Virus record (IMG/VR): IMGVR_UViG_3300023245_000013
From: a virus
Length of the DNA stretch: 64,000 nucleotides
Reading direction: 5' to 3' (one strand)
The position numbers and the translations under genes are program-made. The notes beneath the pieces are model-generated. The model searched no databases and had not been told where the DNA came from. It worked only from the letters and a program-made list of their open reading frames with translations. Shown here in pieces: positions 7,959 to 62,326 of the stretch (the stretch's first letter is position 1; each line of letters opens with the position of its first letter).

Positions 7959-8031
7959 ATCATGAATAAATTTGAATTTGTCCCATTTTATGTCTATTGT
8001 TGTACTACAATATAACAATAGACATAAAAAA

Positions 8032-17063: not shown

Positions 17064-17483
17064 ATGAAAAAAGCATTAGACAACCAGTAAGTACACCCTT
17101 CTACAGAGAAGAAAAACTTAAAGCTTTACATCGTCGTAAGACGAGACCTCGCTCCTGGAGCGCAGGCAACTCAAGGAATGCATTCATTCCACGTATTCAA
17201 TCAAGAATACACAGCCATTTATGAAAAATGGTTATCGAATCCATATTTAGGATTCTTATCAGTCAAAGACGAGCAAGAACTCATCGAGCTCCGAGACAAA
17301 CTCACGCAAAAAGGTATTAATTTCAGTTCCTTCCAGGAGCCTGACCTCGACAACCAGTTCACGTCTATTACCGTAGAACCAGGGAAAGAATCTGCCCGTT
17401 GGTTATCTAGTCTACCACTTGCTTTCAAAGAATTTACGAATCAACCAACTCTCAAGAGTTGTAATTGTAAAGAAGCCGCATGA
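17064..17483 (+). CDS. Pth2-like peptidyl-tRNA hydrolase with in-frame TAA at codon 9
   Basis: MKKALDNQ*VHPSTEKKNL-KLYIVVRRDLAPGAQATQGMH...VKDEQELIEL...FQEPDLDNQFTSI...LSSLPL; the Pth2 first strand lies upstream of the next ATG (17178), so only ATG 17064 covers the domain. Confidence 0.7.
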
Positions 17484-17948: not shown

Positions 17949-18091
17949 CCTGGAGTAGCTCAGTTGGTTAGAGCACCACCCTGATAAATGAGGAAAAGGA
18001 TTGAAACGCAACCTGCGTGGCCACAAGGGTTGTGAAGTAGAGAATTGGAATCGAACGGTGGGGGTCGGGGGTTCGAGCCCTTCCTCCAGGA
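17949..18091 (+). tRNA. tRNA-Ile(GAU) with ~69-nt insertion at the 3' side of the anticodon loop
   Basis: CCTGGAG/CTCCAGG, D arm, CCACC-CTGATAA-[insert 17988-18056]-GGTGG, GGTTCGAGC T loop. Confidence 0.8.
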
Positions 18092-18097
18092 CAATTT

Positions 18098-18264
18098 CCT
18101 GCGATAGCTTAGATATGTTAAAGCACCACACTGATAATGTGGAAGACGAACCGAAAGGACTCAGTTCGGGATGCAAACACAAAAACTCACTTGCGTGGCC
18201 ACAAGAGTGAGTTAGTAGTTGATGTTGAAGAAATGATGGGGGGCAGAACCCTCTCGCGGGACCA
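18098..18264 (+). tRNA. tRNA-Ile(GAU) with ~89-nt insertion at the variable loop/T-stem junction
   Basis: CCTGCGA/TCGCGGG plus ACCA, CCACA-CTGATAA-TGTGG, insert ~18149-18237, non-canonical T loop GGCAGAA. Confidence 0.7.
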
Positions 18265-18324
18265 TTATAATGAGCAGTGAGATGCTTGGGGAGGCGCTGT
18301 TCTCATAAACAACTTCCCCCACAT

Positions 18325-20221: not shown

Positions 20222-20425
20222 ATGGCTACTGTAGATAACACGAGATATTATATAGAATGGACTTCAAACTATACAGCTAAGCATCGCCCCAGGGTGGCTT
20301 GGACCAAATACTCTGGTCCATATTCCTCGTTACGAAGAGTTATGCAGGCTAAGAAAGATATTCTATCTTCACCGTATTGTGGAGACTGGCTGTATCGGAT
20401 AGCACATTACCACAAGGGGCGTTAG
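20222..20425 (+). CDS. hypothetical protein
   Basis: 67-aa ORF; stop overlaps the tRNA 5' end. Confidence 0.45.
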   Translation: MATVDNTRYYIEWTSNYTAKHRPRVAWTKYSGPYSSLRRVMQAKKDILSSPYCGDWLYRIAHYHKGR

Positions 20426-20487
20426 TTCAGAGGTAGAACATCAGGCTTTAACCCTGTACGTCAGGGGTTCGAACCCCCTACGCCCCT
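20416..20487 (+). tRNA. ochre suppressor tRNA (anticodon UUA)
   Basis: Canonical cloverleaf GGGGCGT/ACGCCCC, GTTC/GAAC D stem, TCAGG-CTTTAAC-CCTGT, AGGGG-TTCGAAC-CCCCT; anticodon TTA at 20448-20450. Confidence 0.85.
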
Positions 20488-20559
20488 CTTGAATTACAGA
20501 TAGAAAAAGGCCGCCCTTCGAACAGTTTTTATATTTGTAAAATTGATTACATTTGTAGA

Positions 20560-31176: not shown

Positions 31177-33504
31177 ATGGATGAGTTATTAGCAAAAAGT
31201 ACTGGCGAAACCCTGATTGAGCACAGTCGAAAGGTTGCTGAGGTTGCGGAATATATTGCCGACTCAGTTATAGTTACCTCAGATACAGAAAAAAAACATT
31301 TTATATCAGTTATCCGCAAAGCGGCGCTTCTTCATGATATTGGAAAAGCCGAAACCGAGTTTCAAACTTTACTCCGAAACTCTTTAAATGGTAAATCCAC
31401 TAAAACAAAGAAAAAAGACATTATTTTTTCGCACAATGAAGTGGGATGGGCATTTGTAAGAATGTACATCAGCTTTGACTCAGAGGAGCTAAGACAAGTT
31501 GCTGAAGCAGTATACTGGCATCACGGCATTAACAATGTAATGGGCAAGCACACAGATGCGTCTATTCTTGAGTGGGTTCGGAAGAAGAAAGATAATTCTA
31601 TCGATAGAATGATTGAATTCGTCGAAGAATTATTTCCTGGCCAAGTCCTTGATAGGCCAAGAATAGCTGAAACATCAAGCCCTCATTACTATATTAGAGA
31701 TTTTAACGAGACGAGCGACCTCAACGTTGACAACACGATTATTCGCATGTGCGTGGTAAGAGCTGACCACTTAGTTAGTGAATTAGGAGATTTTACAGTT
31801 GATGAAATTAAAAAAACTATAAATGAACGACTGATTCAACAACACCGTTACGCTTTTACTAAATGCCCATATCCTGGACATGAAAAAAGATGGACACAAC
31901 AAGTTGCTTTAGCATCTAGGACGACCTCGTTTAAGACTGTTCAAATCAACGCCCCTGCTGGATACGGAAAAACACTTCTAGGTTTACTTTGGAGCACTGT
32001 CAACAATAAACGGCTTATTTGGGTGTGTCCAAGAAATGCTGTGGCACAATCAGTGTACCACAACATCTTAAGAGAGCTTAAAAATGCAGGAATTGAAACT
32101 TCAGTAGAATTATATTACGCTGGAAAACAACAGGCCTCAAATTCAGATTTAGGAATAAAGTTTTCAAGCGATATCATTGTAACCAACGTAGATAACTTTT
32201 TACGTCCGACAAAAGAGCATTGTAACGATATTGATTTATTAATGGTATCCGATGCAGATGTTGTATTTGATGAGTATCATGAGCTAGTGTCGGACGGGGC
32301 TTTACTGGCTGGTTTTATAAATCTAATGAAGGTAAGACATCAGATGACAAACGGACGCTCTTTACTGCTGTCCGCAACCCCACTTGATTTATCAGTTTAT
32401 TGGGATTCATTTGACAACTCAACAGCCCATTTGCCTGGAAAATTTGAACATGCTCCTGCTGTCCACAATAAATCATACAAACTCACTACAAAAGAGGGGC
32501 GTTCTAGAATATCTGAAAGTAAAAAAAGCCCTGTTCTTTTTATCTCTAATTCTATAGTTGAGTGTCAAAGAAATAAGCACAAACACAATGAAGATACTAT
32601 TTTGTTTCATGGAAAATTTGAGGACGACGACAATCAAGCGCGATTAAGCGTTATTCTTCAAAACTATGGAAAGCAATCCGACAGAAATATTGAAAAAGAA
32701 CACGTAATAGCGAGCCCAATAGCACAGGCATCTTTAGATGTTTCTTTTAGGCATTTGATTGAAAGTTGCCTGTCTCCAGAAGCTACTCTTCAAAGAGTAG
32801 GCCGTGTCGACAGGTGGGGAGATTATGATGACCAGTCTGAAATTCTAACATATCGAATCCCTTCAGATAATTCTGGACGAAGTGAGAATAGAGCCCGCGA
32901 AACAATGTACTCACGAGAACTGTCTGACTTATGGTTTAATTTTCTAACACAAAGTCAAGGGGAAACAACTTTAGATAACCTATATTCTTTGTATAATAAA
33001 CATTGTAAAGAAAATGAAGCCTTAAGAAGAATCTGGTTAAACACAAAATATCGACAAAGCCGCATGGATTTACATGAGAAAATTTATCCTAATAGGTTAA
33101 CGATTAAAAGTGAAAACTCGGAAGTCCATAAAATACAAGAAACTAGCTATAGAAGCAAAGGAAATGAAATCTTTTTTACTGCTAAAAAATGGGCAAAAAA
33201 AGAATGGACACAGCCTAAATCAACTCCTATTTATGATTCTATACCCGAAGACTTCCATGAAGACTCCAACGCACTAGCAAAAGTATTTAAGATAATTAAA
33301 CATCTTAACGATGAGCCAGATTGCGCTTTTGATTACACTAGATTTTTAAAAGTTCCAAAGCATAGCACAAATCTTGAATTATTGCGTATAATGGCGAAAT
33401 ACAAATCAATGCCGTATCCGAGGATGGATATGGAATATCATGACATTTACGGATATATTAAAAAAACTTTACTGGAAGAGTTTGACCAGCCAATTTACGA
33501 GTAA
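31177..33504 (+). CDS. cas3: Cas3 HD nuclease-helicase
   Basis: HD domain (EHS, LLHDIGK, HNE, WHHG, ADH), Walker A APAGYGKT, VFDEYH, LSAT, FHGKF, QASLDV, QRVGRVDR; next to a CRISPR array. Confidence 0.92.
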   Translation: MDELLAKSTGETLIEHSRKVAEVAEYIADSVIVTSDTEKKHFISVIRKAALLHDIGKAETEFQTLLRNSLNGKSTKTKKKDIIFSHNEVGWAFVRMYISFDSEELRQVAEAVYWHHGINNVMGKHTDASILEWVRKKKDNSIDRMIEFVEELFPGQVLDRPRIAETSSPHYYIRDFNETSDLNVDNTIIRMCVVRADHLVSELGDFTVDEIKKTINERLIQQHRYAFTKCPYPGHEKRWTQQVALASRTTSFKTVQINAPAGYGKTLLGLLWSTVNNKRLIWVCPRNAVAQSVYHNILRELKNAGIETSVELYYAGKQQASNSDLGIKFSSDIIVTNVDNFLRPTKEHCNDIDLLMVSDADVVFDEYHELVSDGALLAGFINLMKVRHQMTNGRSLLLSATPLDLSVYWDSFDNSTAHLPGKFEHAPAVHNKSYKLTTKEGRSRISESKKSPVLFISNSIVECQRNKHKHNEDTILFHGKFEDDDNQARLSVILQNYGKQSDRNIEKEHVIASPIAQASLDVSFRHLIESCLSPEATLQRVGRVDRWGDYDDQSEILTYRIPSDNSGRSENRARETMYSRELSDLWFNFLTQSQGETTLDNLYSLYNKHCKENEALRRIWLNTKYRQSRMDLHEKIYPNRLTIKSENSEVHKIQETSYRSKGNEIFFTAKKWAKKEWTQPKSTPIYDSIPEDFHEDSNALAKVFKIIKHLNDEPDCAFDYTRFLKVPKHSTNLELLRIMAKYKSMPYPRMDMEYHDIYGYIKKTLLEEFDQPIYE

Positions 33505-33546
33505 ACAATTCATAGAAATTACATATTAACCTTTAAACAGATTACC

Positions 33547-34629
33547 ATGAGCAAAGTAAAGTCAATTCTTTTTAAAATTGAAATTGAAGGCAATGGCGTT
33601 GTTAATTACGATAGCAATGAGCAACGGTTCCATATTGGAGAAAAATTCCCTTTCTTAAAATCATACCATAGCAACGTAATGTATGCAAAGAGAAACATTT
33701 ACAACGATGGAAAAGAGCCTCGTTACAAATTAGTTATTTCGCCTACCTGCATGAAGCATGCGATGTATGATAAAGTGTCTCAAACACCAAAGCTTACACA
33801 CAATAAAGATTTACTTTATGCAAACCTTGCCCATCCAGAAAGCATTCTTAATGGGCACTTGCATGCCATTAAAAACGATACGTTAAAAAGAAAAGGAGCC
33901 ATTACACTAGTAGCTGCCGAACAAACGTGCGATGCTCTTTCGCGTCTCGAATTCCATTCAAAGTCTGGTGAGAAAATCAGCTATGAAGCAGACGAAGAAA
34001 AAAGTGATAATTCTATCTACAAAAAAGAAACAATTGGGAAGATTAAGTATTCATCTCAAGGTGCTATAAACCTGAAAGAGCTTCAGTTTTACTCTTGTGA
34101 CGAAATCATGGGACGTTATGGTTTTAATCCCGACCATTTTGATTTATTCAAAAAGTACGCCGACATTCACTTTGGCTCATTTGATAATGAGCTTGGATTT
34201 TTCCAAATGAGAGGAAGTTCTGTAAACATTGCTGAGCGTGGATTCAAATTCACAGATGACCAGGTTCGTTTATTAGTTTCTGTATTTTTAGAAAAGCTTC
34301 TTACGTTGGACATCAGTCGAAGCAGTGCTTATGCACGCAAAGAGAAGCTGATGGTGAAACTGGTTTCCAATCCTTTGATTGACAGGTTTAACAGCGAAGA
34401 GGGTTGGGTCGAAATCAATTCAATAGAAAATATTCAAGCTCTGCAGTATGAAGTGTTTGAAGCATATACGGAAGATGTTACTGGAGATGCAAAAAAACTT
34501 CATGAAGAATTAAAGAAGTACGCGGAAGAAGAACGAGCAACTTTAAAAAAGAATAGCGTGGAAAAGAAAGCCAAAGCCGCAAAGCAAAAAGCAGAGAAAG
34601 TAAAGAAAACCGAAACCACCCCAGCATGA
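33547..34629 (+). CDS. cas7: Cas7 backbone subunit, Cas7fv (type I-F2)-like
   Basis: KSILFKIEIEGNGVVN, VISPTCMKH, KRKG, SIYKKETIG..Y...GAINLKELQFYSCD, ERGFKFTDDQV align with recalled Shewanella Cas7fv blocks. Confidence 0.75.
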   Translation: MSKVKSILFKIEIEGNGVVNYDSNEQRFHIGEKFPFLKSYHSNVMYAKRNIYNDGKEPRYKLVISPTCMKHAMYDKVSQTPKLTHNKDLLYANLAHPESILNGHLHAIKNDTLKRKGAITLVAAEQTCDALSRLEFHSKSGEKISYEADEEKSDNSIYKKETIGKIKYSSQGAINLKELQFYSCDEIMGRYGFNPDHFDLFKKYADIHFGSFDNELGFFQMRGSSVNIAERGFKFTDDQVRLLVSVFLEKLLTLDISRSSAYARKEKLMVKLVSNPLIDRFNSEEGWVEINSIENIQALQYEVFEAYTEDVTGDAKKLHEELKKYAEEERATLKKNSVEKKAKAAKQKAEKVKKTETTPA

Positions 34630-35507
34630 AAGAATTTATGGTTTTGAAGTTTAAAGATGCAGTTTTGTTTCGTAACCATAAAGACACGAAAGATAAATTG
34701 TTTCTTGGAAATAAAGACGCAGGTGAGATTCGAAAGGGGCTCCCTCAATTTGAGTCCTACTTAACACATCATCAGATTTCAAATGTCTTGCACGTGCTTT
34801 TTAATGAAAGACCAGTCCCTTTTTTTGGGGCCTGTGTCTATCAGAAGCAGGATAGATTGATTGAGAAGGCAAAAAACAGCTTCCTAAAGATTGAAGTGCC
34901 CACTTGGGTTACTAAAAAAGGGGATGTTCGAGAAATTAAAGAGATATGCCGCACAAGGAAAGCTTTTTGGAACTCAAACGCCAAAATAACAAACCTCACT
35001 TGGGATTTGATTGAAGCCTACCTAAAAGAGCATTATGGTGATTTCATCACAATGCTCATAGAGGCAACGGGCCACTCAAATATTAGAAAAGTTCCAGTAG
35101 AAGATGTGCCTGATATTTTTAAGCAATCTTTAAACTCAGCCTCTAAACAAGCTTTGCTCTCTCATTTTAGAGAACGTAAAGTTGGAAAAACGGGTGTCGT
35201 TAACTGGCTGAGAAATAAGACTCCTACTGATAAAAACGACCCTATGGAGATGGCTAAGGACTCTATCGCAAAAGGACTTATGCTGGTTGTTCCCAATGGC
35301 ATAGATAAAACGATTCGCTTGAGCGGAACCCTTATTGTGCCGCTTGATGAAGAAGACAAAGAAGTCCTTGAAAACTCAGCTGGTGTGGCAACTATATTGG
35401 ATGGAGGCTTGGTTTGGATTGAAAGAGTGGTATCGGGAAACAGGCTAAGCATTGAGGGTTATGATAGAGTAGGAGATATATCCACTAAACTTACAATAGA
35501 GTCATGA
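34626..35507 (+). CDS. cas5: Cas5-like subunit, Cas5fv-like
   Basis: Lies between cas7 and cas6; THHQISNVLHVL and RLSGTLIV...ENSAGV..LDGGLVWI resemble recalled Cas5fv. Confidence 0.6.
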   Translation: MKEFMVLKFKDAVLFRNHKDTKDKLFLGNKDAGEIRKGLPQFESYLTHHQISNVLHVLFNERPVPFFGACVYQKQDRLIEKAKNSFLKIEVPTWVTKKGDVREIKEICRTRKAFWNSNAKITNLTWDLIEAYLKEHYGDFITMLIEATGHSNIRKVPVEDVPDIFKQSLNSASKQALLSHFRERKVGKTGVVNWLRNKTPTDKNDPMEMAKDSIAKGLMLVVPNGIDKTIRLSGTLIVPLDEEDKEVLENSAGVATILDGGLVWIERVVSGNRLSIEGYDRVGDISTKLTIES

Positions 35508-36220
35508 GAATACAGTTAAAATTTAGCTCCGCAAAGGAGTTGGTTCCAAATAACCTTAAGCACGTTGTGAGTTACATTCATAAATGCTTAGGAAAAGATA
35601 ATCTCTATCACAATCAACCTTCTAACTATGTTATCTCTAGGATGATTGGAGGAACGATTACAGAAGGCGGAACATCCATTGAGTACGCTCATGGAGGCAG
35701 TTTGTTTATATCCTCTGGAGACGAGAGCTTTTTAAATAAACTTCTCGCAGGAGCAGGAGCAAATAAAGATTTTGGATTTGGAATGAAACTGACGGGCATT
35801 GAGTTCATCCAAGAAGACTTGTATGATGGTTTTACTGTTTTTAAAACCACTGAAACTGGCATTTTGCTAAAGAAAAAAAATGGAGGCCGTTATGAATTTC
35901 ACACCCTAAATGATGATGGGTTTGAAGAGGAGTTGTCTGAACAAACAAAAAGACGTTTGTCAAACATTGACAACACTTTAAAATTTGACGGCTTTAGAAT
36001 TGAAGTTCAGAAATCAAACCACAATAAGGTTAGAGATATTTTGATGAGTTCTTCTGGAGCCCCAAGTAAAACCAGTGTGAACAAAGCAAATGTATGCAGC
36101 GTTGTTGTACATTGCAACAAAAAGATTGCTCAAGCTATTCACGACTATGGTTTGGGACAATCTACAGGAATAGGGTTTGGAATGGTTATGGAGATTACAA
36201 ACTCAAAACTCTACATCTGA
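35504..36220 (+). CDS. cas6: Cas6 endoribonuclease
   Basis: G-rich C-terminal loop YGLGQSTGIGFG; YIHKCLG..N.YH resembles Bacteroidota Cas6. Confidence 0.85.
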   Translation: MRIQLKFSSAKELVPNNLKHVVSYIHKCLGKDNLYHNQPSNYVISRMIGGTITEGGTSIEYAHGGSLFISSGDESFLNKLLAGAGANKDFGFGMKLTGIEFIQEDLYDGFTVFKTTETGILLKKKNGGRYEFHTLNDDGFEEELSEQTKRRLSNIDNTLKFDGFRIEVQKSNHNKVRDILMSSSGAPSKTSVNKANVCSVVVHCNKKIAQAIHDYGLGQSTGIGFGMVMEITNSKLYI

Positions 36221-36306
36221 CTCCTTGTGCAAGCGCTCTTTGACGTCTTTTTTCCATCCAGTACATGTGGTTGTTGCTTGTTTATTAGCGCATTAGCCAC
36301 AGGTAC

Positions 36307-38318
36307 CCTGTTTATCATCTCATTCTGCAAGGGAATCACAACTCTTAGAATCAAGTTCGCCAACTTCAAACACCTGTTTATCATCTCATTCTGCAAGGGA
36401 ATCACAACGTGAACCTTTGATAATTAAAGCTTTGTGCACCTGTTTATCATCTCATTCTGCAAGGGAATCACAACATGCGCGGGTTATTTGGGTTGAGTGG
36501 TCCACCTGTTTATCATCTCATTCTGCAAGGGAATCACAACTTGGTTTGTTTTTTGCATTGTTTAAATAAACCTGTTTATCATCTCATTCTGCAAGGGAAT
36601 CACAACCTTTAGTCACAGCACCCAACATGAAATTGACCTGTTTATCATCTCATTCTGCAAGGGAATCACAACTTTAATGCGTTTATCATGAATTGGACTG
36701 CACCTGTTTATCATCTCATTCTGCAAGGGAATCACAACTGTATGTCTTTTTGGGTCAAGTTGAAGTAGCCTGTTTATCATCTCATTCTGCAAGGGAATCA
36801 CAACAGCGCAATGATATTTTGAATGCATACCGTCCCTGTTTATCATCTCATTCTGCAAGGGAATCACAACGATTGGTCTTGAAGACTAAGATTTAATCTA
36901 CCTGTTTATCATCTCATTCTGCAAGGGAATCACAACAAAAGGAACGTACTAAAGGAATTCGATTCCCCTGTTTATCATCTCATTCTGCAAGGGAATCACA
37001 ACTCGATTAGCGGAATTAGTTCCAAAAGCTTCCCTGTTTATCATCTCATTCTGCAAGGGAATCACAACAGACAAAAACCACCTCGAAACGAAGGTGAACC
37101 TGTTTATCATCTCATTCTGCAAGGGAATCACAACTACTCTCTTGCTTCCATTCGATGTTGCTTTGCCTGTTTATCATCTCATTCTGCAAGGGAATCACAA
37201 CTAATAGCTACACGCCCTTCTTATCCTTTGTCCTGTTTATCATCTCATTCTGCAAGGGAATCACAACTATATCTGCTTGCAAGCTCCCGACCTTTGCCTT
37301 GTTTATCATCTCATTCTGCAAGGGAATCACAACTCTTCCTCAAATCGGTATTCATTATAGTCTCCTGTTTATCATCTCATTCTGCAAGGGAATCACAACT
37401 GAACAGCAAAATTATTCAAGGCGATTGCCCCTGTTTATCATCTCATTCTGCAAGGGAATCACAACATAAAGGCTTTCTGATGTATCAATTCCCTCCTGTT
37501 TATCATCTCATTCTGCAAGGGAATCACAACATGGCAAGCAAATATGTTTCTGTTTTGGTACCTGTTTATCATCTCATTCTGCAAGGGAATCACAACACCA
37601 TCTTGGTAATTCTTTATTTGGCTGTGCCTGTTTATCATCTCATTCTGCAAGGGAATCACAACTGTTGGGTGCTGTGGCTAATCGTAATCCGCCTGTTTAT
37701 CATCTCATTCTGCAAGGGAATCACAACTACCTGCCATCTGTTTGAAATATTTTATCTCCTGTTTAAAACGGAATTTCTGCTGATTATTTTTTAGTTTAAG
37801 AAGGATGTCTTCGATTTGCTTTATATCTCTGAAATTCTTTGACTTTTGACAGCAGATTTTGGTGATTTCAGCAAGTGCAAGCCCTTTCAATGTGTTCTCT
37901 GTGTTTACAGCTGTTAAAAGATAATTTAGACGGTCGATTTCATTTTCCATTGTTGTTGTTTAATCTGAAATAGGCTGAAATTTATTCGAGATAAATTTTG
38001 TTTAGAGAATAATGCTCACCTGTTTATCATCTCATTCTGCAAGGGAATCACAACGGGATGCACGGGGCGCATTCAACTTTTAAACCTGTTTATCATCTCA
38101 TTCTGCAAGGGAATCACAACTTCGCCTAAGGTGGTTATTCCATCGTTAGACCTGTTTATCATCTCATTCTGCAAGGGAATCACAACAGCTTGTAGGTATT
38201 TGAAGTTGCTCCCTCCCCTGTTTATCATCTCATCCTGTAAGGGAATCACAACATTTTGCACTTCTTGGTTTGACATCATACCCCTGTTTATCACCTCATC
38301 CTGTAAAGGAATAATTTA
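36307..38318. CRISPR. CRISPR array: 27 repeats of 36 nt (CCTGTTTATCATCTCATTCTGCAAGGGAATCACAAC) plus one partial; spacers 29-31 nt
   Basis: 22 repeats 36307-37727, partial repeat 37758-37765, insertion, then 5 repeats 38019-38318 of which the last two are degenerate; transcription direction unresolved. Confidence 0.97.
37705..37950 (-). CDS. small ORF inserted in the CRISPR array
   Basis: ATG preceded by A-rich ATTAAACAACAACA; 81 aa, runs through a spacer into a repeat. Confidence 0.5.
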   Translation of the reverse strand: MENEIDRLNYLLTAVNTENTLKGLALAEITKICCQKSKNFRDIKQIEDILLKLKNNQQKFRFKQEIKYFKQMAGSCDSLAE

Positions 38319-38382: not shown

Positions 38383-38417
38383 AACTTGGAATAGATGCAA
38401 CTTATTGTATATCTTTG
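38383..38417 (+). promoter_or_regulatory. Bacteroidota-type promoter for the Ser/Arg/Trp tRNA operon
   Basis: TATCTTTG box with upstream TTG. Confidence 0.65.
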
Positions 38418-38520
38418 CGTCTCAATTATAGAACGAGAAAATATTTTTCCCAACTATATATTGACAACTAATTCCTTCTCGTCCCTGAGAAATAAAACTT
38501 GAAGGTAAAGAACAAAAACA

Positions 38521-38604
38521 ATGAAAACACTCCCAAACATAAATTGGTCGTCATCAAGATGGAGTTCTAGGAAAAACCTAGGGCCTGACCGAGTTATGCG
38601 TTAA
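38521..38604 (+). CDS. leader peptide MKTLPNINWSSSRWSSRKNLGPDRVMR
   Basis: A-rich upstream region; nine consecutive Trp/Ser/Arg codons at 38545-38571; followed by a terminator. Confidence 0.75.
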   Translation: MKTLPNINWSSSRWSSRKNLGPDRVMR

Positions 38605-38661
38605 TGTGAATTCATAAACGATATCAAGGAAAGCCCTAGGAGAAATCTTAGGGCTTTTTTT
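38567..38661 (+). promoter_or_regulatory. transcription attenuator (1:2, 2:3 and 3:4 helices)
   Basis: 1 CTAGG 38567-71; 2 CCTAGGGC 38577-84; 3 GCCCTAGG 38633-40; 4 CTTAGGGC 38647-54 followed by a T run. Confidence 0.75.
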
Positions 38662-38676
38662 GTGTCCAAAAAATAA

Positions 38677-38762
38677 GGAAGGTACCTCGCAAGTGGTGTG
38701 GAACAGGGCTTGAACCCCTGGGTGTCGTTTGCTCGGCAGGGGTTCGAACCCTCTATCTTCCT
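38677..38762 (+). tRNA. tRNA-Ser(UGA)
   Basis: CAGGG-CTTGAAC-CCCTG, long variable arm. Confidence 0.85.
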
Positions 38763-38794
38763 CAATACAGTTCTTTGACATGTTGGGTTTTTAT

Positions 38795-38882
38795 GGAAGT
38801 GACGCGAATGTTGTCATTGTCGCACCAGTCTTGAAAACTGGCTCACTTAATTGTGACGAGGGTTGGATTCCCTTCGCTTCCT
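38795..38882 (+). tRNA. tRNA-Ser(UGA)
   Basis: CCAGT-CTTGAAA-ACTGG, long variable arm. Confidence 0.85.
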
Positions 38883-38918
38883 CAAAGTCGTGACTCTCGA
38901 CTCAAACTAGAGCCATAT

Positions 38919-39008
38919 GGCGAGGTACTCAAATGGTAAAGAGGCCGCTTTGCTAAAGCGGTAGGGCAGTAAAATGTTACGTGGGTTCGACCCCCATCTT
39001 CGCCTCCA
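38919..39008 (+). tRNA. tRNA-Ser(GCU)
   Basis: CCGCT-TTGCTAA-AGCGG, encoded CCA. Confidence 0.9.
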
Positions 39009-39011
39009 TAT

Positions 39012-39096
39012 GGATAGATACTCAAATGGTAAAGAGGCTGTCTTGGAAAGGCAGTAGGCCCTTCGGGGTGCGAGAGTTCGAACCCCACTTCGTCCA
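39012..39096 (+). tRNA. tRNA-Ser(GGA), mismatched T stem
   Basis: CTGTC-TTGGAAA-GGCAG; T stem GAGAG/CCCAC has two mismatches. Confidence 0.7.
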
Positions 39097-39147
39097 CCCC
39101 TGGGCGGTTTTGTACTTTTTGAAGCTATGTATTAGAAATAATACACC

Positions 39148-39972
39148 ATGCCTAGAAAAGAAAAGAAGTTTCATTACATCTACAAAACCACTAATACCCT
39201 AACGGGTAGATATTATATTGGGATGCATTCCACCGATGTAGTTGAAGATGGATACCTGGGTTCAGGTAAGCGTCTTCGACGTTCTGTCAATAAGCATGGA
39301 GCTGAATGTCACTCCAGAGAGATACTTGAGTTTTGCAATTCTCGAAAGGAGTTGATTGATAAGGAAAAAGAGGTCGTGACATTGGAGGAAATTGCTAAGA
39401 ATGACTGTATGAATCTAATGCCAGGAGGCAGAGGGGGATTTATCAGTGATGAGCATCAGAGGCATAGGTCTATTTGTGCTGCTAAAGCAGCTAAGAAAAA
39501 AGCAGATGAAAACCCGAAGTTTAAAAAGAAATGGGAGGAAGCTAGGTTAAAAGGATTAAAAAAAGCCTACAAAGAGGGAAGAATACCAAACATTCAAGAC
39601 CATTATGATTGGTCAGGAAAAGAGCATACACCTGAGACAATTAAAAAGTTGAGAATAGTAAAGAAAGGAAAAGGAATTGGTAAATCTAATTCTCAATTTA
39701 ATACTTGCTGGATTAATAATGGAGTTGATTCTAAAAAAGTTAACAAACAGACTATTGAAGATTTCTTTAGTCAAGGGTGGGTAAAAGGTAGAAAGATGAA
39801 AGATGGGTTTAAAAACAAATTTAAGCTCTCACAGGAAGAAGTTAATAAAAGAAAAAACCTCATGTCTCATATTGATTTTAATAAAAGAGGTTGGGTGAAA
39901 CAAGCTTGCGAAGCTTTGAATATGAAGCCTGGGGGAGTTAAAAGATTTGTAAACACATATATAAGAAATTAA
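39148..39972 (+). CDS. GIY-YIG homing endonuclease
   Basis: HYIYKTTN...RYYIGMHST...GYLGSG, NUMOD3-like GKEHTPETIKKL; inside the tRNA cluster. Confidence 0.85.
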   Translation: MPRKEKKFHYIYKTTNTLTGRYYIGMHSTDVVEDGYLGSGKRLRRSVNKHGAECHSREILEFCNSRKELIDKEKEVVTLEEIAKNDCMNLMPGGRGGFISDEHQRHRSICAAKAAKKKADENPKFKKKWEEARLKGLKKAYKEGRIPNIQDHYDWSGKEHTPETIKKLRIVKKGKGIGKSNSQFNTCWINNGVDSKKVNKQTIEDFFSQGWVKGRKMKDGFKNKFKLSQEEVNKRKNLMSHIDFNKRGWVKQACEALNMKPGGVKRFVNTYIRN

Positions 39973-39974
39973 AT

Positions 39975-40048
39975 GGCTCCGTAATTCAATTGGACAGAAT
40001 ATCAGTTTTCTAAACTGAGGGTTCCGAGTTCGAATCTCGGCGGGGTCA
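39975..40048 (+). tRNA. tRNA-Arg(UCU)
   Basis: TCAGT-TTTCTAA-ACTGA, canonical arms. Confidence 0.9.
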
Positions 40049-40102
40049 CTTATGGTTTGTATCGACCAGGTCAGGATTAACCTGACCAAACAGATACGAT
40101 AC

Positions 40103-40185
40103 GCTGGTCCTACTTCATAGGTGAGAGAGACAGATTCCAACCCTGTCGCCTTCGGGATTTGTGGGTTCGACTCCTACGACCAGCG
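40103..40185 (+). tRNA. tRNA-Trp(CCA) with long variable arm
   Basis: GCTGGTC/GACCAGC, ACAGA-TTCCAAC-CCTGT, variable region CGCCTTCGGGATTT. Confidence 0.75.
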
Positions 40186-40211
40186 CTAAAATTACAACGT
40201 TAGAATTAATA

Positions 40212-40297
40212 CACGTCGGCTATTCATTGGTGAGACAGAGGGTCTCCAAAACCCTTGCCCGTAAGGGATGTGCAGATTCGACTTCTGCTCGGCGTGC
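40212..40297 (+). tRNA. tRNA-Trp(CCA) with long variable arm
   Basis: AGGGT-CTCCAAA-ACCCT, variable region TGCCCGTAAGGGATGT. Confidence 0.8.
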
Positions 40298-40339
40298 TTA
40301 TTTGAAACAAAACCCAATTGAATGCGTATATTTGCTTAC

Positions 40340-41341
40340 ATGAGAAAACTAGCAACCATTCGGAGAATAGAATCACTACATCCTATTAAAAAAGCTGACC
40401 GTATCGAACTTGCAAAAGTTGGTGGTTGGAGGTCAGTGGTCAAAAAAGGAGAATTCAATGTTGGCGACATGGTAGTTTATTGTGAGATAGATTCTTTATT
40501 GCCTGTGAAAGAAGAATTTGAGTTTCTTCGAAAATCTTGTTTTAGAGAATTGCCATATGGAGTTTCGGGGTTCCGATTAAGAACAATGAAACTTCGAGGT
40601 CAAATATCACAAGGCCTCATACTTCCTTTGTCAGTTCTTTCTTCAGGAGATTTTAAAATTGGAGAAGATGTAACTGAGCAGTTACAGATAATCAAGTACG
40701 ACCCACCTATTCCAAAAGAAATGATGGAAAGTGCAATTGGAGTTTTTCCGTCGTTTATTAAAAAGACAGAAGAGGAAAGAATTCAAAACTTAGATTCGGA
40801 GATAGAGCTTTTAAAGGGGCGAACTTTTTTCGTAACTGAAAAACTTAATGGACTCTCGATGACAGTTTTTCATAACGCAAACGAATTTGGCGTTTGTGGA
40901 AGAAACTATCAATATAAAAAACTTGAAAGCAATGCTTTGTGGTCTTCGGCGATAGAAGAAGGGCTAGAAGAGAAATTAAAAGCTTACGGTAAAAATATTG
41001 CTATTCAAGGCGAGTTGGTTGGGCCTGGAATCAGCGATAATCCATATGAGCTTGTGACAAAAGAATACCGAGTTTATAACATATTCAACATTGATGAATA
41101 CGCATACCTCTCGAAAAAAGATTGTCAAGAATTAGCCACTCAAATGAGCCTAAAGTTAGTTCCACTTGTCTCAGCGTCTATGGCATTGCCTGAATCTGTA
41201 GATGCCATCCTAGAAATGGCTGATGGACCAAGCCAGTTAAATCCAGAGACTCAGAAAGAAGGAGATGTTTGGGTAAGCGGCGATGGACAAGATAGAGTCT
41301 CTTTTAAAGTTATTTCGAATCATTTTTTATTGGAGGAATGA
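40340..41341 (+). CDS. ATP-dependent RNA ligase, DRB0094/Rnl2-like family
   Basis: RKLATIRRI, ADRIELA, VYCEIDSLLP, LRGQISQGL, motif I TEKLNG, IQGELVG, KEG, SFKVIS. Confidence 0.9.
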   Translation: MRKLATIRRIESLHPIKKADRIELAKVGGWRSVVKKGEFNVGDMVVYCEIDSLLPVKEEFEFLRKSCFRELPYGVSGFRLRTMKLRGQISQGLILPLSVLSSGDFKIGEDVTEQLQIIKYDPPIPKEMMESAIGVFPSFIKKTEEERIQNLDSEIELLKGRTFFVTEKLNGLSMTVFHNANEFGVCGRNYQYKKLESNALWSSAIEEGLEEKLKAYGKNIAIQGELVGPGISDNPYELVTKEYRVYNIFNIDEYAYLSKKDCQELATQMSLKLVPLVSASMALPESVDAILEMADGPSQLNPETQKEGDVWVSGDGQDRVSFKVISNHFLLEE

Positions 41342-41360
41342 TTTTCGTATATTTACATTT

Positions 41361-41432
41361 GGCCCCGTAGCTCAGTGGAAGAGCAATTCCCTTCTAAGGA
41401 ATCGGTCCCAGGTTCGAATCCTGGCGGGGTCA
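41361..41432 (+). tRNA. tRNA-Arg(UCU)
   Basis: ATTCC-CTTCTAA-GGAAT. Confidence 0.9.
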
Positions 41433-41608
41433 CTAAATGCAAGAATGGAGATTTATCTCCTGAGACGCCTAATGCTTTACACACCCTGGGTTCCTAGCCC
41501 AGGCAATGTGGTGCTAGTAAAGCTTCTTGTGTTTTTTAAAGACAGCAAATGAAACTTTTTTCGAAAAGCTCCGTATAATAGTAATATAAACAAAAACAAA
41601 TAACGCTT

Positions 41609-42019
41609 ATGAAATCTTACGCATCTATTATCATTGTATTTATTTCAATGTTTTTTCTGCCCTCTGCTTTTGCAGCAGAACCCGTCTATAACGACGAAGA
41701 ATCCATTGCCGTGTATGAACCCGTCGTTACAATCACTGCTCTAGGAGGAAATGAATATCAAGTTAAGATTGAGGTCTGGCTGCCAAAAAACACCACAGGA
41801 GGCGTTGTTTCTAATACTGTCAATGGTGACACACGCTCTATTGACATCGATATTGTTGGAGGAGTACCTATCAACGGGCCTCATCTTGAAACTTATAGTT
41901 TAGTTGTTACACGCCTTTCAGGGGAAAACGAAATACTTACAGAAGTTTTTGAGTTAACACAAGGTAAGCCTAAGAAGAAGAAAGGGCAGACTGTTGTGGT
42001 TTATTCAGGTGTAATTTAA
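41609..42019 (+). CDS. secreted hypothetical protein
   Basis: Signal peptide ending AFA; behind promoter motif at 41551. Confidence 0.6.
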   Translation: MKSYASIIIVFISMFFLPSAFAAEPVYNDEESIAVYEPVVTITALGGNEYQVKIEVWLPKNTTGGVVSNTVNGDTRSIDIDIVGGVPINGPHLETYSLVVTRLSGENEILTEVFELTQGKPKKKKGQTVVVYSGVI

Positions 42020-42020
42020 A

Positions 42021-42127
42021 AATACTTGGAATGTAGGCTTGGAAGCAGCCATCATCTAAAGAGTAGCGACGTGAGGTGTTAAAGGGACCATCTGAGAGCT
42101 TTTAGCGTAATAGCACACCGAGTATTT
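42021..42127 (+). ncRNA. 23S rRNA L11-binding domain (H42-H44) mimic with internal insertion
   Basis: ATGTAGGCTTGGAAGCAGCCATCATCTAAAGAG...AGCGTAATAGCACAC closed by AATACTTGG/CCGAGTATT; no flanking rRNA sequence. Confidence 0.8.
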
Positions 42128-42582
42128 TTGGTATTATTTTAACTGGCACTGAAAAGCCCATAACGGATGACAACTCCAAGGGTAGTTCCATCGAAAGATG
42201 GCGGTGTAGCGGGTGGAGATACAGTGACTCCGTAAAGAAATGGCACGATAGCTATGCGCCTCAGTTAAAGACCTTGTGTCGTCCTCTGCTCTGTTCCTCG
42301 GAACAGCAAGACGGTCCCGCTGGACAGAAGGCCTCTGATTCCAGCCGCTGACATTTAAGAAACGGGCCCTAATAAATATCCCCACAGGAGGCTAGTGTGT
42401 CGTCGCATGAATAGAAGTGGGTAGTGCCACAGAGATGGGTAGTTGATGCCGTATCACGAAATCAGACAGGAACGATTCCCTGACAACAAGCGTAGCTCTA
42501 ACCCTATTGTGGGGACATCTTAAAAGCAAGGCTCCTTCGGGAATGTGGAAGCATAAGTTCTTGTATTTGTTGGGTGAGATTT

Positions 42583-42666
42583 GGCCAGGTGGCAGAATGG
42601 ATATTGCGCCAACCTCCTAAGTTGGTGTCCGAAAGGCACTTGTGGGTTCGAATCCCTCCTTGGTCA
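42583..42666 (+). tRNA. tRNA-Arg(CCU) with long variable arm
   Basis: CCAAC-CTCCTAA-GTTGG, variable region TGTCCGAAAGGCACT. Confidence 0.8.
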
Positions 42667-42686
42667 CAAAAATTTTACCGTTTTGA

Positions 42687-56136: not shown

Positions 56137-58818
56137 TTGAATAACGAACAATTTTCCCCAGGGGCACATGATACGCTTGCAAGAGCACAGCGTCAAGCAA
56201 TGTCATTCTCTCACAAACAAGTTGAGCCAATACACGTTTTACGTGCTATACTGGTTGAACAAGATAATTTGGTTGCAATTATCCTAGATAAAGTAAACGA
56301 AGACAGCGGTAAGACATATACCATCGAAGAGATGAACACGTTGTCAAAGACTTTCTTAGAGAACACCAAAGTTGTTCAGTACGAAGGTCGTCCAGAGATG
56401 TCTGAGGTGATGAATCAACTTCTGGTAATAGCAATTGGGTTTGGAGAAAACGAACAAGGTGGAGAACAACTCTGCCAACCAAAACACTTGCTTCGAGCAT
56501 TTTTCCGTGTGAACTCCACTGCCACAAATGTACTTATCTCGATGGATATCGAAGAGAAGCACCTCGATTCAGCGCTTGAAGATATTCAAGGTGAGAATGA
56601 ATTCATCGCAGAAGGAGGAGAAAGCAAAACTCCCAACTTGGATGCATACGCCGTCAACTTAAACGAACGTGCGGAGCAAAACAAGCTTGACCCAGTTATT
56701 GGGCGAGACACGGAAATGCGTCGTGCCCTTCACATCCTTTCAAAACGCACCAAGAACAATCCAATTTTGATTGGAGAGGCAGGAGTTGGTAAAACAGCTA
56801 TTGTTGAAGGATTGGCACAAAGAATATTTAGCGGAGATGTCCCAGTCAATATGAAAGGGTGCACTTTGTTCTCTCTTGACATGGCTTCTCTAATTGCAGG
56901 GGCTTCATTTAAAGGAGAATTTGAACAACGTCTTAAAGGTGTTATCAAAGAAGTTGAGGACTCTAACAAAGAGTTCATTTTGTTCATTGACGAGATTCAC
57001 ACAATCTTGGACGCAGGTTCAGGTGGTGGAGCTTTGAGTGCAGGAGAGCTTTTGAAGCCCGCTTTGGCTCGTGGAGAAATGGCAACGGTTGGAGCAACAA
57101 CTCTGAACGAGTACCAGAAACACATCGAGAAAGATTCAGCTTTGGAGCGTAGATTTCAAAAAGTAATGGTCGAAGAACCAACTCCTGGAACAACAGTTGC
57201 AATATTACGCGGTCTTCAAAGTAGGTATGAAAACTTTCACAAGGTTCAGTTTTCAGATGATGCCTTGATTGCGGCAGTGAAGATGTCGGACAGATACATT
57301 ACCGATAGAAACCTTCCAGACAAAGCAATCGACCTGATTGATGAAGCTGCATCTAAAATTCGTTTGGAGATTAACTCCAAGCCAGAAGTGCTGGATGAAG
57401 TTGACAGAGAAATCACACAAATTCGAATTGAGCTCGCAGCAATGGGCTCAGATTCAAATGCATCTGAGAAGCGCAAGCGAGAGATGCTCGACAAATTGTC
57501 TGAGCTAATTGAGACGCAAGAAGATTTGAATGCGAAGTGGCTTCGTGAAAAGAAGTACATTGACGAGATTCAAGAACTCAAGCGAGCCCAAGAAGAATTG
57601 TCTTTCCAGGCGGAGCAGTTCACAAAGAACTCAGACCTTGAAGGAGCTGCAAAGCTCCTTCACGGTGAGTTGCCAGAGAACGAAAAGCAACAAGCAGTAG
57701 CTAGAGAGAAACTGATTGAGATTCAATCTCACCACAAGCTTCTAAAAGAAGTTGTGACTGAGTTAGAGATTGCAGAAGTTGTTTCGGCTTGGACTGGAAT
57801 TCCAGTCTCGAAAATGACAAAGAGTGATAATGAGAAACTTCTTTACATTGAAGATGAATTGCAAAAGCGAGTTATCGGACAAATAGAGGCTGTATCAGAA
57901 GTTGCGAAGTCAATCCGAGTGAATCGTGTCCCAGGTATTGGTGACCCAAAGAAGCCTATTGGTTCATTTCTATTCTTGGGAACAACGGGAGTTGGAAAAA
58001 CAGAGTTGGCAAAAGCGCTTGCTGAGTACCTATTTGATGACGAAACTCACATGATTCGAATTGACATGTCTGAGTACCAAGAGAAGCACACTGTTTCTCG
58101 ACTTGTAGGTTCGCCTCCAGGGTATATTGGATATGACGAAGGAGGTCAATTGACGGAGCCAGTCCGAAAGCGCCCATACAATGTTGTGTTGTTGGACGAG
58201 ATTGAGAAGGCTCACCCAGATGTGTTGAACGTGCTTCTGCAGGTTCTAGACGATGGACGTCTAACAGACAACAAAGGACGATTGGTGAACTTTAAGAACA
58301 CCATCATCATCATGACTTCAAACATTGGGTCCAGAGTTATCCAAGATGAATTCGAGGATTCAGGAAACGTAATAACGCCAGAGCTTGTCAAAGCAATCAA
58401 CGAGGACGTTATGGAAGAACTCAAGCAAACAATGCGCCCTGAGCTTCTTAACCGACTTGACGAGGTTGTTATTTTCAACCCGCTCGACCAAACCGCAATT
58501 AACCAGATTGTTGAATTGCAACTCAAATCTTTCAGAAAGAACATGGAAGAGGAAGAGTACGAGTTGAACTGGACCGCAGAGGCAGTGGAGTTGCTTGGAA
58601 TAAAAGGCTACGACCCACAGTTTGGAGCGAGACCAGTTAAAAGAGCGATTACGGAACTTGTCCGTGAGCCATTGAGTTTTGAGATTCTAGGCGGTAACGT
58701 TGGGAAGAAAACACCAATCCTTATCGGAAGAAAAGGAGAAGAGTTGTCTTTCAAAAACGAGAAGACTTTGAAGCCTAAGAAAGAGGTGAAAGAAATAAAA
58801 ACAGAAGTAGAAGCATGA
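56137..58818 (+). CDS. clpB: chaperone ClpB
   Basis: Clp-N repeats, [15 protein letters not shown]-domain [11 protein letters not shown]...[33 protein letters not shown]; TTG start. Confidence 0.92.
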
Positions 58819-60539: not shown

Positions 60540-60572
60540 CTTGTGAGTTCTAAGTAATCTTTCTATTTTTGC
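60540..60572 (+). promoter_or_regulatory. Bacteroidota-type promoter for the Pro/Asp/Ala/Tyr tRNA operon
   Basis: TATTTTTG box with upstream TTG. Confidence 0.6.
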
Positions 60573-60634
60573 CTCGTATTTATTACCAAGAGCAACTCTT
60601 TTGAGAAGCACTTTTAAAAAACAAAACACATTCA

Positions 60635-60760
60635 ATGTTCAACTTTACAGACATAGCGATTTCAAACCAACCGATGCCGATGGCAGCGACTGGCTGTGCG
60701 CCCGATTATAGCGGGAGCAAGCAGAATGACCTGGTTATGTCTAAACTGAACAACAGTTGA
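60635..60760 (+). CDS. leader peptide MFNFTDIAISNQPMPMAATGCAPDYSGSKQNDLVMSKLNNS
   Basis: A-rich upstream region; contains the antiterminator segment; followed by a terminator. Confidence 0.7.
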   Translation: MFNFTDIAISNQPMPMAATGCAPDYSGSKQNDLVMSKLNNS

Positions 60761-60831
60761 TGTAGAGACATAAACCATTAGGGAAAACCCCCAGGTCATT
60801 CAATCAAACGAATGACCTGGGGGTTTTTTTT
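60724..60831 (+). promoter_or_regulatory. transcription attenuator
   Basis: Terminator CCCCCAGGTCATTC/GAATGACCTGGGGG plus T8; leader GAATGACCTGG (60724-34) duplicates the 3' arm. Confidence 0.8.
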
Positions 60832-60877: not shown

Positions 60878-60951
60878 CGGGAGGAAGTGCAGTCAGGTAG
60901 CACGGGGCATTTGGGATGCTCAGGTCGAGGGTTCAAATCCCTCTCTCCCGA
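60878..60951 (+). tRNA. tRNA-Pro(UGG)
   Basis: GGGCA-TTTGGGA-TGCTC. Confidence 0.9.
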
Positions 60952-61104
60952 CACAAAGTGTTAGTTTACAAGAGTTTCTAGTAAATGTCCACACGAGTAG
61001 GAGTTTTTGAAAACAATAAGAGTTCTTTGACATATTGATAATAAAGTTAATTAAAAAACCCAAGATATTACACCGATGTAATCGTCATAATATCTTGGGA
61101 AAAT

Positions 61105-61178
61105 GGTGGCGCATCATATTGGCGCATGTTGCCTCCCTGTCACGGAGGAGATTGAGGATTCGAATTCCTTCGTCACCG
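61105..61178 (+). tRNA. tRNA-Asp(GUC) copy 1
   Basis: CCTCC-CTGTCAC-GGAGG. Confidence 0.8.
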
Positions 61179-61208
61179 CTTTGGTGCATTAAAGTACCAC
61201 AATTTATT

Positions 61209-61330
61209 ATGGGGAGGAATAATTAATACTTTTTCGCTTTTTACCTGGCAACAGTGTTGATAGAAAGAGTTACTTCGAAAATTAGTATCATAAACTATAA
61301 TTGCAGATTAAGACCTGCCCTCCCCACCAT
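61209..61330 (+). ncRNA. GAGUUACUUC motif RNA copy 4, circularly permuted
   Basis: 3' half (CTTTTTC..TTACCTG), GCAA loop, 5' half (CAGTGTTGATAGAAAGAGTTACTTC), enclosed by GGGGAGG/CCTCCCC. Confidence 0.65.
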
Positions 61331-61341
61331 ATTTAAAAATT

Positions 61342-61409
61342 TTCAGTGTTGAAAGAAGAGTTACTTCGTTATAGGAACATAAAATCACTCTTCTTAGAAT
61401 TACCTGAAA
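61342..61409 (+). ncRNA. GAGUUACUUC motif RNA copy 5
   Basis: TTCAGTGTTGA-AAGAAGAG-TTACTTC-loop-CA-CTCTTCTT-AGAATTACCTGAA. Confidence 0.75.
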
Positions 61410-61413
61410 AAAT

Positions 61414-61487
61414 GGTGGCGCATCATATTGGCGCATGTTGCCTCCCTGTCACGGAGGAGATTGAGGATTCGAATTCCTTCGCTACCG
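61414..61487 (+). tRNA. tRNA-Asp(GUC) copy 2
   Basis: Near-identical to 61105-61178. Confidence 0.8.
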
Positions 61488-61534
61488 CCCTTGGTCATTT
61501 ACGCTTATGACCTTAATAAACAAAAAAACGACAC

Positions 61535-61610
61535 GGTGTGGAGGTGTTGATGGTAACATTTGTCCCTGTCACGGATGAGATTGTGGGTTCGACTCCCATG
61601 CACACCGCCA
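61535..61610 (+). tRNA. tRNA-Asp(GUC)
   Basis: TGTCC-CTGTCAC-GGATG, encoded CCA. Confidence 0.8.
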
Positions 61611-61734
61611 ATTCAATCTTAGGTGCCTTAGGTAGCCGAGTCGCTTCGTCAGCGAAAAAGGACTCACTGAGATGTAGGCGCATTGAGCGTCGCATTAAAG
61701 GCTTGGGGATGACGCCCTGAGATTGATTGTTTAT

Positions 61735-61809
61735 GGGGTTGAAGCATGTGCTGGCTAATGCATCTGTCTGGCAGACAGAAGACCGTGGGTTCAATTCCCA
61801 TCTTCTCCA
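61735..61809 (+). tRNA. tRNA-Ala(GGC), weak acceptor stem
   Basis: TCTGT-CTGGCAG-ACAGA; two U-U mismatches in the acceptor stem. Confidence 0.7.
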
Positions 61810-61902
61810 CAATAAAAGATTAAAGAAAACAGGATATGCGACGAGCGTCTGGTGGGTATTCCCCTCATCAGGTTAAGCCGTTGGGGAACATGTCCTGCTA
61901 AT

Positions 61903-61977
61903 GGGGATGTAGCTCAATTGGCTGAGCGGCTGCCTTGCACGTAGCGTCGTATGTGGGTTCGAGTCCCATCATCTCCA
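61903..61977 (+). tRNA. tRNA-Ala(UGC)
   Basis: GGGGATG/CATCTCC, GCTGC-CTTGCAC-GTAGC. Confidence 0.9.
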
Positions 61978-61980
61978 CAA

Positions 61981-62069
61981 ATTCCAAAACGGTTCGAATC
62001 CGTTGCAGAGAGAAGGCCTCTACTCTGCCCAGTTGTTCGCGACATGCTGGTCCTTGGTTGGTGAGGAAT
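61981..62069 (+). ncRNA. permuted tRNA-like element
   Basis: T arm AACGG-TTCGAAT-CCGTT precedes a loop-closed GCAGAG/CTCTGC stem; enclosed by ATTCC/GGAAT. Confidence 0.45.
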
Positions 62070-62081
62070 CAATTTTTAAAT

Positions 62082-62171
62082 GGGAGTGAGGCAACTATCG
62101 GTTGTGTTGTGCCAGGTTGTAACCCTGGTCCCTCTGGGTAAACGTTGGGGGTTCGAGTCCCTCCACTCTCA
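62082..62171 (+). tRNA. tRNA-Tyr(GUA)
   Basis: CCAGG-TTGTAAC-CCTGG. Confidence 0.85.
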
Positions 62172-62235
62172 CATGGCAGTCATGCCACTTTCTTCGGAAG
62201 TAACCTCAATAGGGGTTGTGAAAAATGACTATTAT

Positions 62236-62326
62236 GGAAGTGAGGTCGACTATCGGTTGTGTCGCACTAGACTGTAAATCTAGTCCCTTTGGGTAAACAA
62301 TGGGGGTTCGAGCCCCTCCGCTTCCA
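62236..62326 (+). tRNA. tRNA-Tyr(GUA)
   Basis: CTAGA-CTGTAAA-TCTAG. Confidence 0.9.

Follow-up and report, generated by a model that had tools for sequence, protein, structure and literature searches.

In trp- and his-type attenuation, ribosome stalling within a short leader reading frame is coupled to read-through of transcription into the genes behind it. In the trp leader, the 2:3 helix is slightly stronger than the 1:2 helix, the 3:4 helix is the strongest of the three, and the switch between them is kinetic. Control of this kind also reaches the translation machinery, since the pheST attenuator of Escherichia coli, with the pheM leader, governs a component of that machinery for the amino acid sensed by the leader. 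The purpose of the tRNAs encoded by phages is debated, codon supply and counter-defence being the two functions discussed; to our knowledge, little has been established on the ways in which phages regulate them. The parts considered here of PMC10264068 (eLife 2023) and PMC11464382 (PARIS) treat phage tRNAs as a counter-defence to tRNA-targeting nucleases. Full-text literature searches returned no published description of leader-peptide control of tRNA genes. The present analysis concerns a 64,000-nt stretch (the window) of the IMG/VR virus record IMGVR_UViG_3300023245_000013, in which the region around positions 38386 to 42667 is likely, judged from its sequence, to comprise a trp/his-type ribosome-mediated (leader-peptide) transcription attenuator ahead of a phage tRNA operon.

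The window belongs to a linear 141-kb virus record (G+C content 38.7%; completeness estimate 64%) of an uncultured salt-lake phage; many salt-lake metagenomes hold near-identical DNA, and an identical RNA ligase is also present on a 447-kb contig. The leader region, which contains a small open reading frame (ORF), consists of the following elements; L016 and L018 are related sequences introduced below.

38386 to 38417, plus strand: Bacteroidota-type promoter (TTG, 21-nt spacer, TAtcTTTG) from a motif scan; -7 box invariant in L016 and L018
38521 to 38604, plus strand: leader ORF of 27 codons plus stop, with ATG start, A-rich 5' context and no Shine-Dalgarno sequence
38545 to 38571, plus strand: nine consecutive codons inside the leader ORF, encoding W S S S R W S S R and putatively regulatory
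38544 to 38571, plus strand: segment 1, made up of UUGGUC (38544-49) and GUUCUAGG (38564-71), both of them 5' strands in the 1:2 domain, from folds and the RNAalifold consensus
38577 to 38592, plus strand: segment 2, in which CCUAGGGC (38577-84) pairs with segment 1 or 3 and GACCGA (38587-92) closes helix P1
38633 to 38661, plus strand: intrinsic terminator, with segment 3 (38633-41), a GAAA loop, segment 4 (38646-54) and U7 (38655-61)

The original prediction, made from the letters and a list of ORFs, had placed a nine-codon run inside a 27-aa ORF behind a host-type promoter, and both were recovered at the positions given above, the promoter as a TTG/TAnnTTTG motif. The run reads TGG TCG TCA TCA AGA TGG AGT TCT AGG (38545-38571). 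All nine codons are decoded by the tRNAs encoded downstream, and each of the six downstream anticodon species has at least one codon in the run. As a set these tRNAs decode TCN, AGY, AGR and TGG, standard wobble being assumed for the reading of TCG by the UGA anticodon. The frequency of this codon set in coding sequence is 0.108, so that nine such codons in succession are expected with a probability of about 2e-9 per position. In the six frames of the 141-kb record, a nine-codon run drawn from the set occurs once, versus 0.0065 expected, and the leader is the sole 9/9 case among 1063 small ATG-ORFs (15-60 codons).

The start context of the leader ORF resembles that of real genes of the phage. 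Shine-Dalgarno sequences are found at 3.9% of the phage gene starts, as compared to a background of 11.7%, indicating genes without such sequences, and the starts are A-rich at positions -10 to -13. The motif TTG, 17-21 nt, TAnnTTTG is enriched in the window, with 11 sites versus 1.9 in shuffles. Both the promoter motif and the starts without Shine-Dalgarno sequences fit a Bacteroidota host, judged by the signals of that phylum. The 5' untranslated region of the leader contains a 42-nt insertion (38478-38519) relative to L016/L018, located between a conserved TTGACAAC box and the A-rich start region. Variation of the leader among populations was not seen in four salt-lake runs.

Behind the leader, the following genes are arranged on the same strand.

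38677 to 39099, plus strand: tRNAs Ser-UGA, Ser-UGA, Ser-GCU and Ser-GGA, the first beginning 15 nt past the U-tract
39148 to 39972, plus strand: GIY-YIG homing-endonuclease-like gene between the tRNAs (Pfam SegE_GIY-YIG)
39975 to 40297, plus strand: tRNAs Arg-UCU, Trp-CCA and Trp-CCA, both Trp tRNAs of 84-85 nt with a long variable arm
40322 to 41341, plus strand: RNA ligase of the Naegleria gruberi RNA ligase type, with a possible own -7 box at 40327
41361 to 41433, plus strand: second copy of tRNA Arg-UCU (ARAGORN)
42583 to 42667, plus strand: tRNA Arg-CCU, 85 nt, with a long variable arm; co-transcription with the leader uncertain

The interval 38677-42667 thus holds nine tRNA genes: Ser-UGA (two), Ser-GCU, Ser-GGA, Arg-UCU (two), Trp-CCA (two) and Arg-CCU. 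Six of the nine (Ser-GCU, Ser-GGA, both Arg-UCU, one Trp-CCA and Arg-CCU) are called by ARAGORN at default settings. The two Ser-UGA genes (38677-38761 and 38795-38881) and the second Trp-CCA gene (40212-40296) are non-canonical and were detected only by relaxed ARAGORN and, below threshold, by the Rfam tRNA-Sec model (E 1e-2 to 6e-5). L016 carries two Ser-UGA genes at matching places, which ARAGORN calls at default settings. Neither ARAGORN nor Rfam revealed further tRNA species within the interval. The earlier claim that the downstream tRNAs together decode all codons of the run, with no extra species, therefore stands, with three of the nine tRNAs resting on relaxed or sub-threshold calls. 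A terminator-like hairpin with a T-run lies 3' of the second Arg-UCU gene, and Arg-CCU follows about 1.1 kb beyond; given this hairpin and the -7 box at 40327, the ligase and the distal Arg tRNAs may form units of their own.

Trp-CCA 40103-40186, Trp-CCA 40212-40297 and Arg-CCU 42583-42667 have a stem-loop variable arm and are type-II-like. The two Trp and two Ser-UGA genes have their best match, below threshold, in the Rfam tRNA-Sec model, and Arg-CCU matches the ordinary tRNA model. A 16-nt motif, GTTCTTTGACNTNTTG (GTTC(T/A)TTGAC-N-T-N-TTG), occurs after the first tRNA of three clusters of the phage (17687-17702, 38770-38785 and 61022-61037) and is kept in L016 and L018; it may serve as an internal promoter or in processing. 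At the position of the GIY-YIG gene, L018 has a gene of equal size, the two being likened by size and place. L018 (4532-5422) also encodes a 238-aa protein of the TrpRS/TyrRS family (PF00579) directly 5' of two Trp tRNAs, a gene for which there is no counterpart in this record. Within the 560-nt non-coding stretch 5' of Arg-CCU, positions 42019-42125 weakly match the archaeal large-subunit rRNA model over its positions 1172-1238 (16.6 bits, E 0.075).

The 1:2, 2:3 and 3:4 helices that had been proposed for the leader transcript were recovered in folds and duplexes, the terminator ending in U7. The minimum-energy fold (z = -5.6) combines a three-way 1:2 domain, which takes in the codon run, with a strong 3:4 terminator. 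Within the 1:2 domain, codons 9-10 supply UUGGUC, the partner of GACCGA, and codons 15-17 supply GUUCUAGG, the partner of CCUAGGGC. The terminator, GCCCUAGGA-GAAA-UCUUAGGGC followed by U7, has a G+C-rich 9-bp stem. Segment 2 copies the 3' arm of the terminator and is complementary to GCCCUAGG, that is, to eight of the nine bases of the 5' arm, and a 2:3 helix gives the terminator almost no toehold. To place this complementarity in context, the best duplex between the 5' arm and the 100 nt upstream was computed for each of the 18 terminators of the record that have a perfect stem and a U-tract. The terminators of the two tRNA clusters with leaders (for the second, see below) are the strongest by far, at -19.0 and -16.6 kcal/mol, the remainder of the 18 not exceeding -10.6 kcal/mol in strength.

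The position of a ribosome on the leader was modelled crudely, as a block from -12 nt to +14 nt around the first P-site base of a transcript ended before segment 4. Modelled stalls at run codons 1-7 allow the 8-bp 2:3 helix to form. The stop codon (38602) lies 26 nt 5' of the terminator stem, and a terminating ribosome would thus leave the terminator uncovered. We infer that the leader is translated, that its translation is coupled to transcription and that the element responds to tRNA supply. In the proposed mechanism, transcription by host RNA polymerase would begin near 38417, at the Bacteroidota-type promoter, with a ribosome translating the 27-codon leader. When tRNAs for Trp, Ser and Arg(AGR) are abundant, this ribosome would pass the run and stop at 38602; the 1:2 structure would re-form behind it, segment 3 would remain free, and the 3:4 hairpin would end transcription at the U-tract (38655-61). 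Slow decoding of any run codon would hold the ribosome over segment 1, leaving segment 2 (CCUAGGGC) to pair with eight of the nine bases of the terminator 5' arm, and the polymerase would proceed into the tRNA genes. The phage would then probably make these tRNAs only when ribosomes decode the run codons slowly, and since the tRNAs made are the readers of the test codons, the loop would be self-limiting.

Relatives of the module were reached via the RNA ligase of the cluster, namely the diverged phage contigs L016/L017 (73% protein identity) and L018 (69%), whose DNA identity across the region is about 66-77%. L016/L017 and L018 keep the -7 box, the position of the ATG, the ORF, the codon run and the terminator, and their tRNAs are of the same kinds. 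The leader frame is also kept, with 27 aa in L016 and, via a 3-nt indel that is the only one within the ORF, 28 aa in L018; a 2-nt indel occurs just after the stop. On both sides of the run, in the eight codons 5' of it and in those 3' of it, the sequences diverge widely. Within the run, changes are confined to three third-codon positions, and all are synonymous (two TCG/TCA swaps and AGG to AGA). RNAalifold analysis of three homologues yielded 39 consensus pairs, four of them kept by two-sided changes and two broken in one sequence. Twelve terminator pairs are kept in the three homologues, one via a compensatory exchange of A-U for G-C. The 2:3 helix was judged by per-sequence duplexes rather than by alignment pair counts, because segment 2 of L018 is displaced by one base in the MAFFT alignment; duplex energies in the three homologues are -18.1, -12.1 and -18.3 kcal/mol, and L018 keeps 8 bp via an exchange of U-A for C-G. 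Beyond these relatives, the codon-run pattern (two scans) and the conserved tRNA-Ser stretch (one scan) had no match in viral contigs, and the codon-run pattern had none in metagenome contigs or species genomes. The terminator pattern gave 33 matches in metagenome contigs, all of them unrelated ordinary terminators. RNA-ligase relatives at about 55% identity are cellular genes, and the module is absent from IMG/VR RNA-ligase relatives at 39-59% identity.

A second unit of the same design is present elsewhere in the window.

60541 to 60831, plus strand: second unit, with promoter 60541-71, leader ORF 60635-60760 and terminator 60788-60823 plus U8
60878 to 62325, plus strand: tRNAs behind the second unit, Pro-UGG, Asp-GUC, Ala-GGC, Ala-UGC and Tyr-GUA (two)

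The order of promoter, ORF and terminator recurs, and the terminator has a 14-bp stem followed by U8. The second leader ORF comprises 41 codons with the core PMPMAATGCAPDY, in which eight of the 13 codons are for Pro, Asp, Ala or Tyr. Its antiterminator, GAAUGACCUGG (60724-34), lies inside the ORF and is an exact copy of part of the terminator 3' arm; the residues A-P-D-Y occupy the last positions at which a modelled stalled ribosome still leaves this antiterminator free. The cross-match between leaders and tRNA sets is specific: leader 1 has nine codons matching its own set and three matching the other, and leader 2 has 11 and five, respectively. For Asp-GUC, two copies were called and a third was recognized by eye. 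Besides the Asp-GUC gene at 61535-61610, near-identical Asp-GUC-like copies with repeated flanks are located at 61105-61178 and 61415-61488. Among relatives of the second unit, L021 ends at the promoter, just short of the leader; L022 carries a TnpB-like gene there; and L013 has tRNAs and lacks the leader.

The attenuator reading that had been put forward for the first leader is thus supported by its anatomy, by the statistics of the codon run, by run changes that are synonymous only, by compensatory helix changes and by the second unit. Several observations weigh against it. The match of the second leader is modest, a level of 8/13 being reached by four of the 1063 small ORFs, and no such leader unit accompanies the suppressor tRNA (20416) or the Leu/Ile cluster (from 17605) of the same window. 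Once segment 4 exists, the terminator always wins at equilibrium, and a kinetic switch is therefore required. The length of the 2:3 helix is only 8 bp, and 6 bp in L016. In the ribosome model, a stall at TCT, the penultimate run codon, reduces the 2:3 helix from eight to seven pairs, and a stall at the last run codon, AGG, masks segment 2, so that AGG may not promote read-through; L016 has an Arg-CCU gene, yet AGA replaces AGG in its leader. The sample is small, with three distinct homologues only, all with the same kinds of tRNA. A brief inspection of the tRNA region in Prevotella phage Lak-A1 revealed no perfect-stem terminator 5' of the tRNAs.

At 17949-18091 and about 18095-18265 there are two tRNA-Ile(GAU)-like genes with inserts of approximately 70-90 nt, the first of which Rfam matches as a 143-nt tRNA. 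The tRNA at 20416-20488 has the anticodon UUA and is of the ochre suppressor type. In a Pth2-like gene at 17066, the ninth codon is an in-frame TAA.

If the element is an attenuator, the nature of its signal has to be considered. In line with the original prediction, which named anticodon nucleases and an RNA ligase, and against the plausible background of PMC10264068 and PMC11464382, we tentatively raise, as an unlikely extension, that both attenuators are sensors of tRNA-destroying host defences and that the first one controls a damage-inducible counter-defence operon. Anticodon nucleases or tRNA-cleaving toxins would deplete host Ser, Trp and Arg (or Pro, Asp, Ala and Tyr) tRNAs and cause stalls at the matching codons, which would induce both an RNA ligase that serves repair and replacement tRNAs of unusual structure. 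The Trp and Arg-CCU tRNAs with their long variable arms, and the Ser tRNAs with their odd D-arms, may escape the nuclease. A genuine attenuator might instead report general translation capacity or amino-acid starvation, by way of charged Ser, Trp or Arg tRNA or of ribosome availability, rather than the loss of particular tRNAs to nucleases. Classical attenuators do answer to charged-tRNA levels, as established for trp and his, and low charging and low tRNA abundance are indistinguishable from sequence; extra tRNA would, however, give no relief from amino-acid starvation, so that a cargo of tRNA genes fits a tRNA-supply signal better, and we regard this alternative as improbable.

Equally improbable in our view is that the conserved region encodes either a structured small RNA or a functional WSSSRWSSR micro-peptide, with a leaky terminator, conservation then being structural or a matter of peptide function rather than of codon sensing. 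The run sits in the conserved three-way 1:2 structure, and nucleotide conservation there could be structural; consistent with this, the AGG to AGA change is compensated in the helix, one TCG to TCA change converts a G-U to an A-U pair, and the third change falls in a loop. A small RNA or micro-peptide would nevertheless leave unexplained why all nine codons match the downstream tRNAs (about 2e-9 per position), why segment 2 copies the terminator 3' arm, and why an unrelated second unit exists with other codon and tRNA sets.

Very unlikely is a chance ORF beside a terminator of the ordinary kind whose role is to shield the tRNA genes from CRISPR-array transcription, the tRNAs being expressed from other promoters, phage-specific or internal: the array (about 36230-38310, plus strand) does end just 5' of the leader without a terminator of its own, and the motif GTTCTTTGACNTNTTG could be a promoter or a processing site, but the codon run is far beyond chance, the ORF frame, run and antiterminator are conserved, the module of L018 is present without an upstream CRISPR array, which indicates that the terminator is not merely the end of the array, and the 15 nt between the end of the U-tract and the first tRNA leave no room for a promoter, no -7 box having been found between the terminator and the first tRNAs. 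A T-box riboswitch was rejected, as there was no match to an Rfam T-box or other cis-regulatory leader model, either at the gathering score or with E values as high as 1.

The sequence directly 5' of the leader region comprises cas3 and cas6 genes and a repeat array. This CRISPR locus (31177-38310) has an array of 36-nt repeats, and two ORFs between cas3 and cas6 are without a Pfam match. The relative L016 (4380-4810) has a seven-repeat mini-array with no adjoining cas genes, and L018 has no array. Two large AAA+ protease/chaperone genes are located at 7972-10077 and 56137-58818, which PHROGs labels as ATP-dependent protease; the L021 copy of the latter has Clp_N and ClpB-type domains.

The preferred reading of the region as a leader-peptide attenuator would, if true, describe a direct, self-limiting sensor of tRNA supply and a new use for a classic mechanism. 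It would also provide a simple sequence rule, searchable across phage genomes, that predicts the tRNAs whose supply in the host is limiting for a phage.

Compared with known systems, the mechanism is of a known kind, and the cargo and the feedback logic are new. With the trpL, hisL, leuL, thrL and ilvL leaders the element shares a promoter, a short ORF with clustered codons, mutually exclusive 1:2, 2:3 and 3:4 helices and an intrinsic terminator, and its run, which covers three amino acids, is multivalent like those of the ilv and thr leaders; no Rfam leader family was matched by sequence similarity. It differs from the enterobacterial amino-acid leaders in its Bacteroidota-type promoter and its start without a Shine-Dalgarno sequence, and in a run that samples different isoacceptor codons instead of repeating a single codon. 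The pheST attenuator is likewise a leader-peptide attenuator over translation machinery, but it regulates a synthetase rather than tRNAs, senses a single amino acid and is cellular, not viral. T-box riboswitches also use a terminator/antiterminator switch that reads tRNA status in front of translation-related genes; unlike the phage element with its conserved translatable ORF, they bind uncharged tRNA directly via a specifier loop and the T-box motif, with no ribosome involved. The systems treated in PMC10264068 and PMC11464382 resemble the locus in that phage tRNAs replace host tRNAs, and here an RNA ligase is nearby, as in the T4 repair paradigm; in the parts of these papers considered, there is no leader-peptide switch of phage tRNA genes, and regulation is the new element here. 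A further difference from the enterobacterial leaders is the cargo, which consists of tRNA genes and not of biosynthetic enzymes, so that the product itself would be the sensed molecule.

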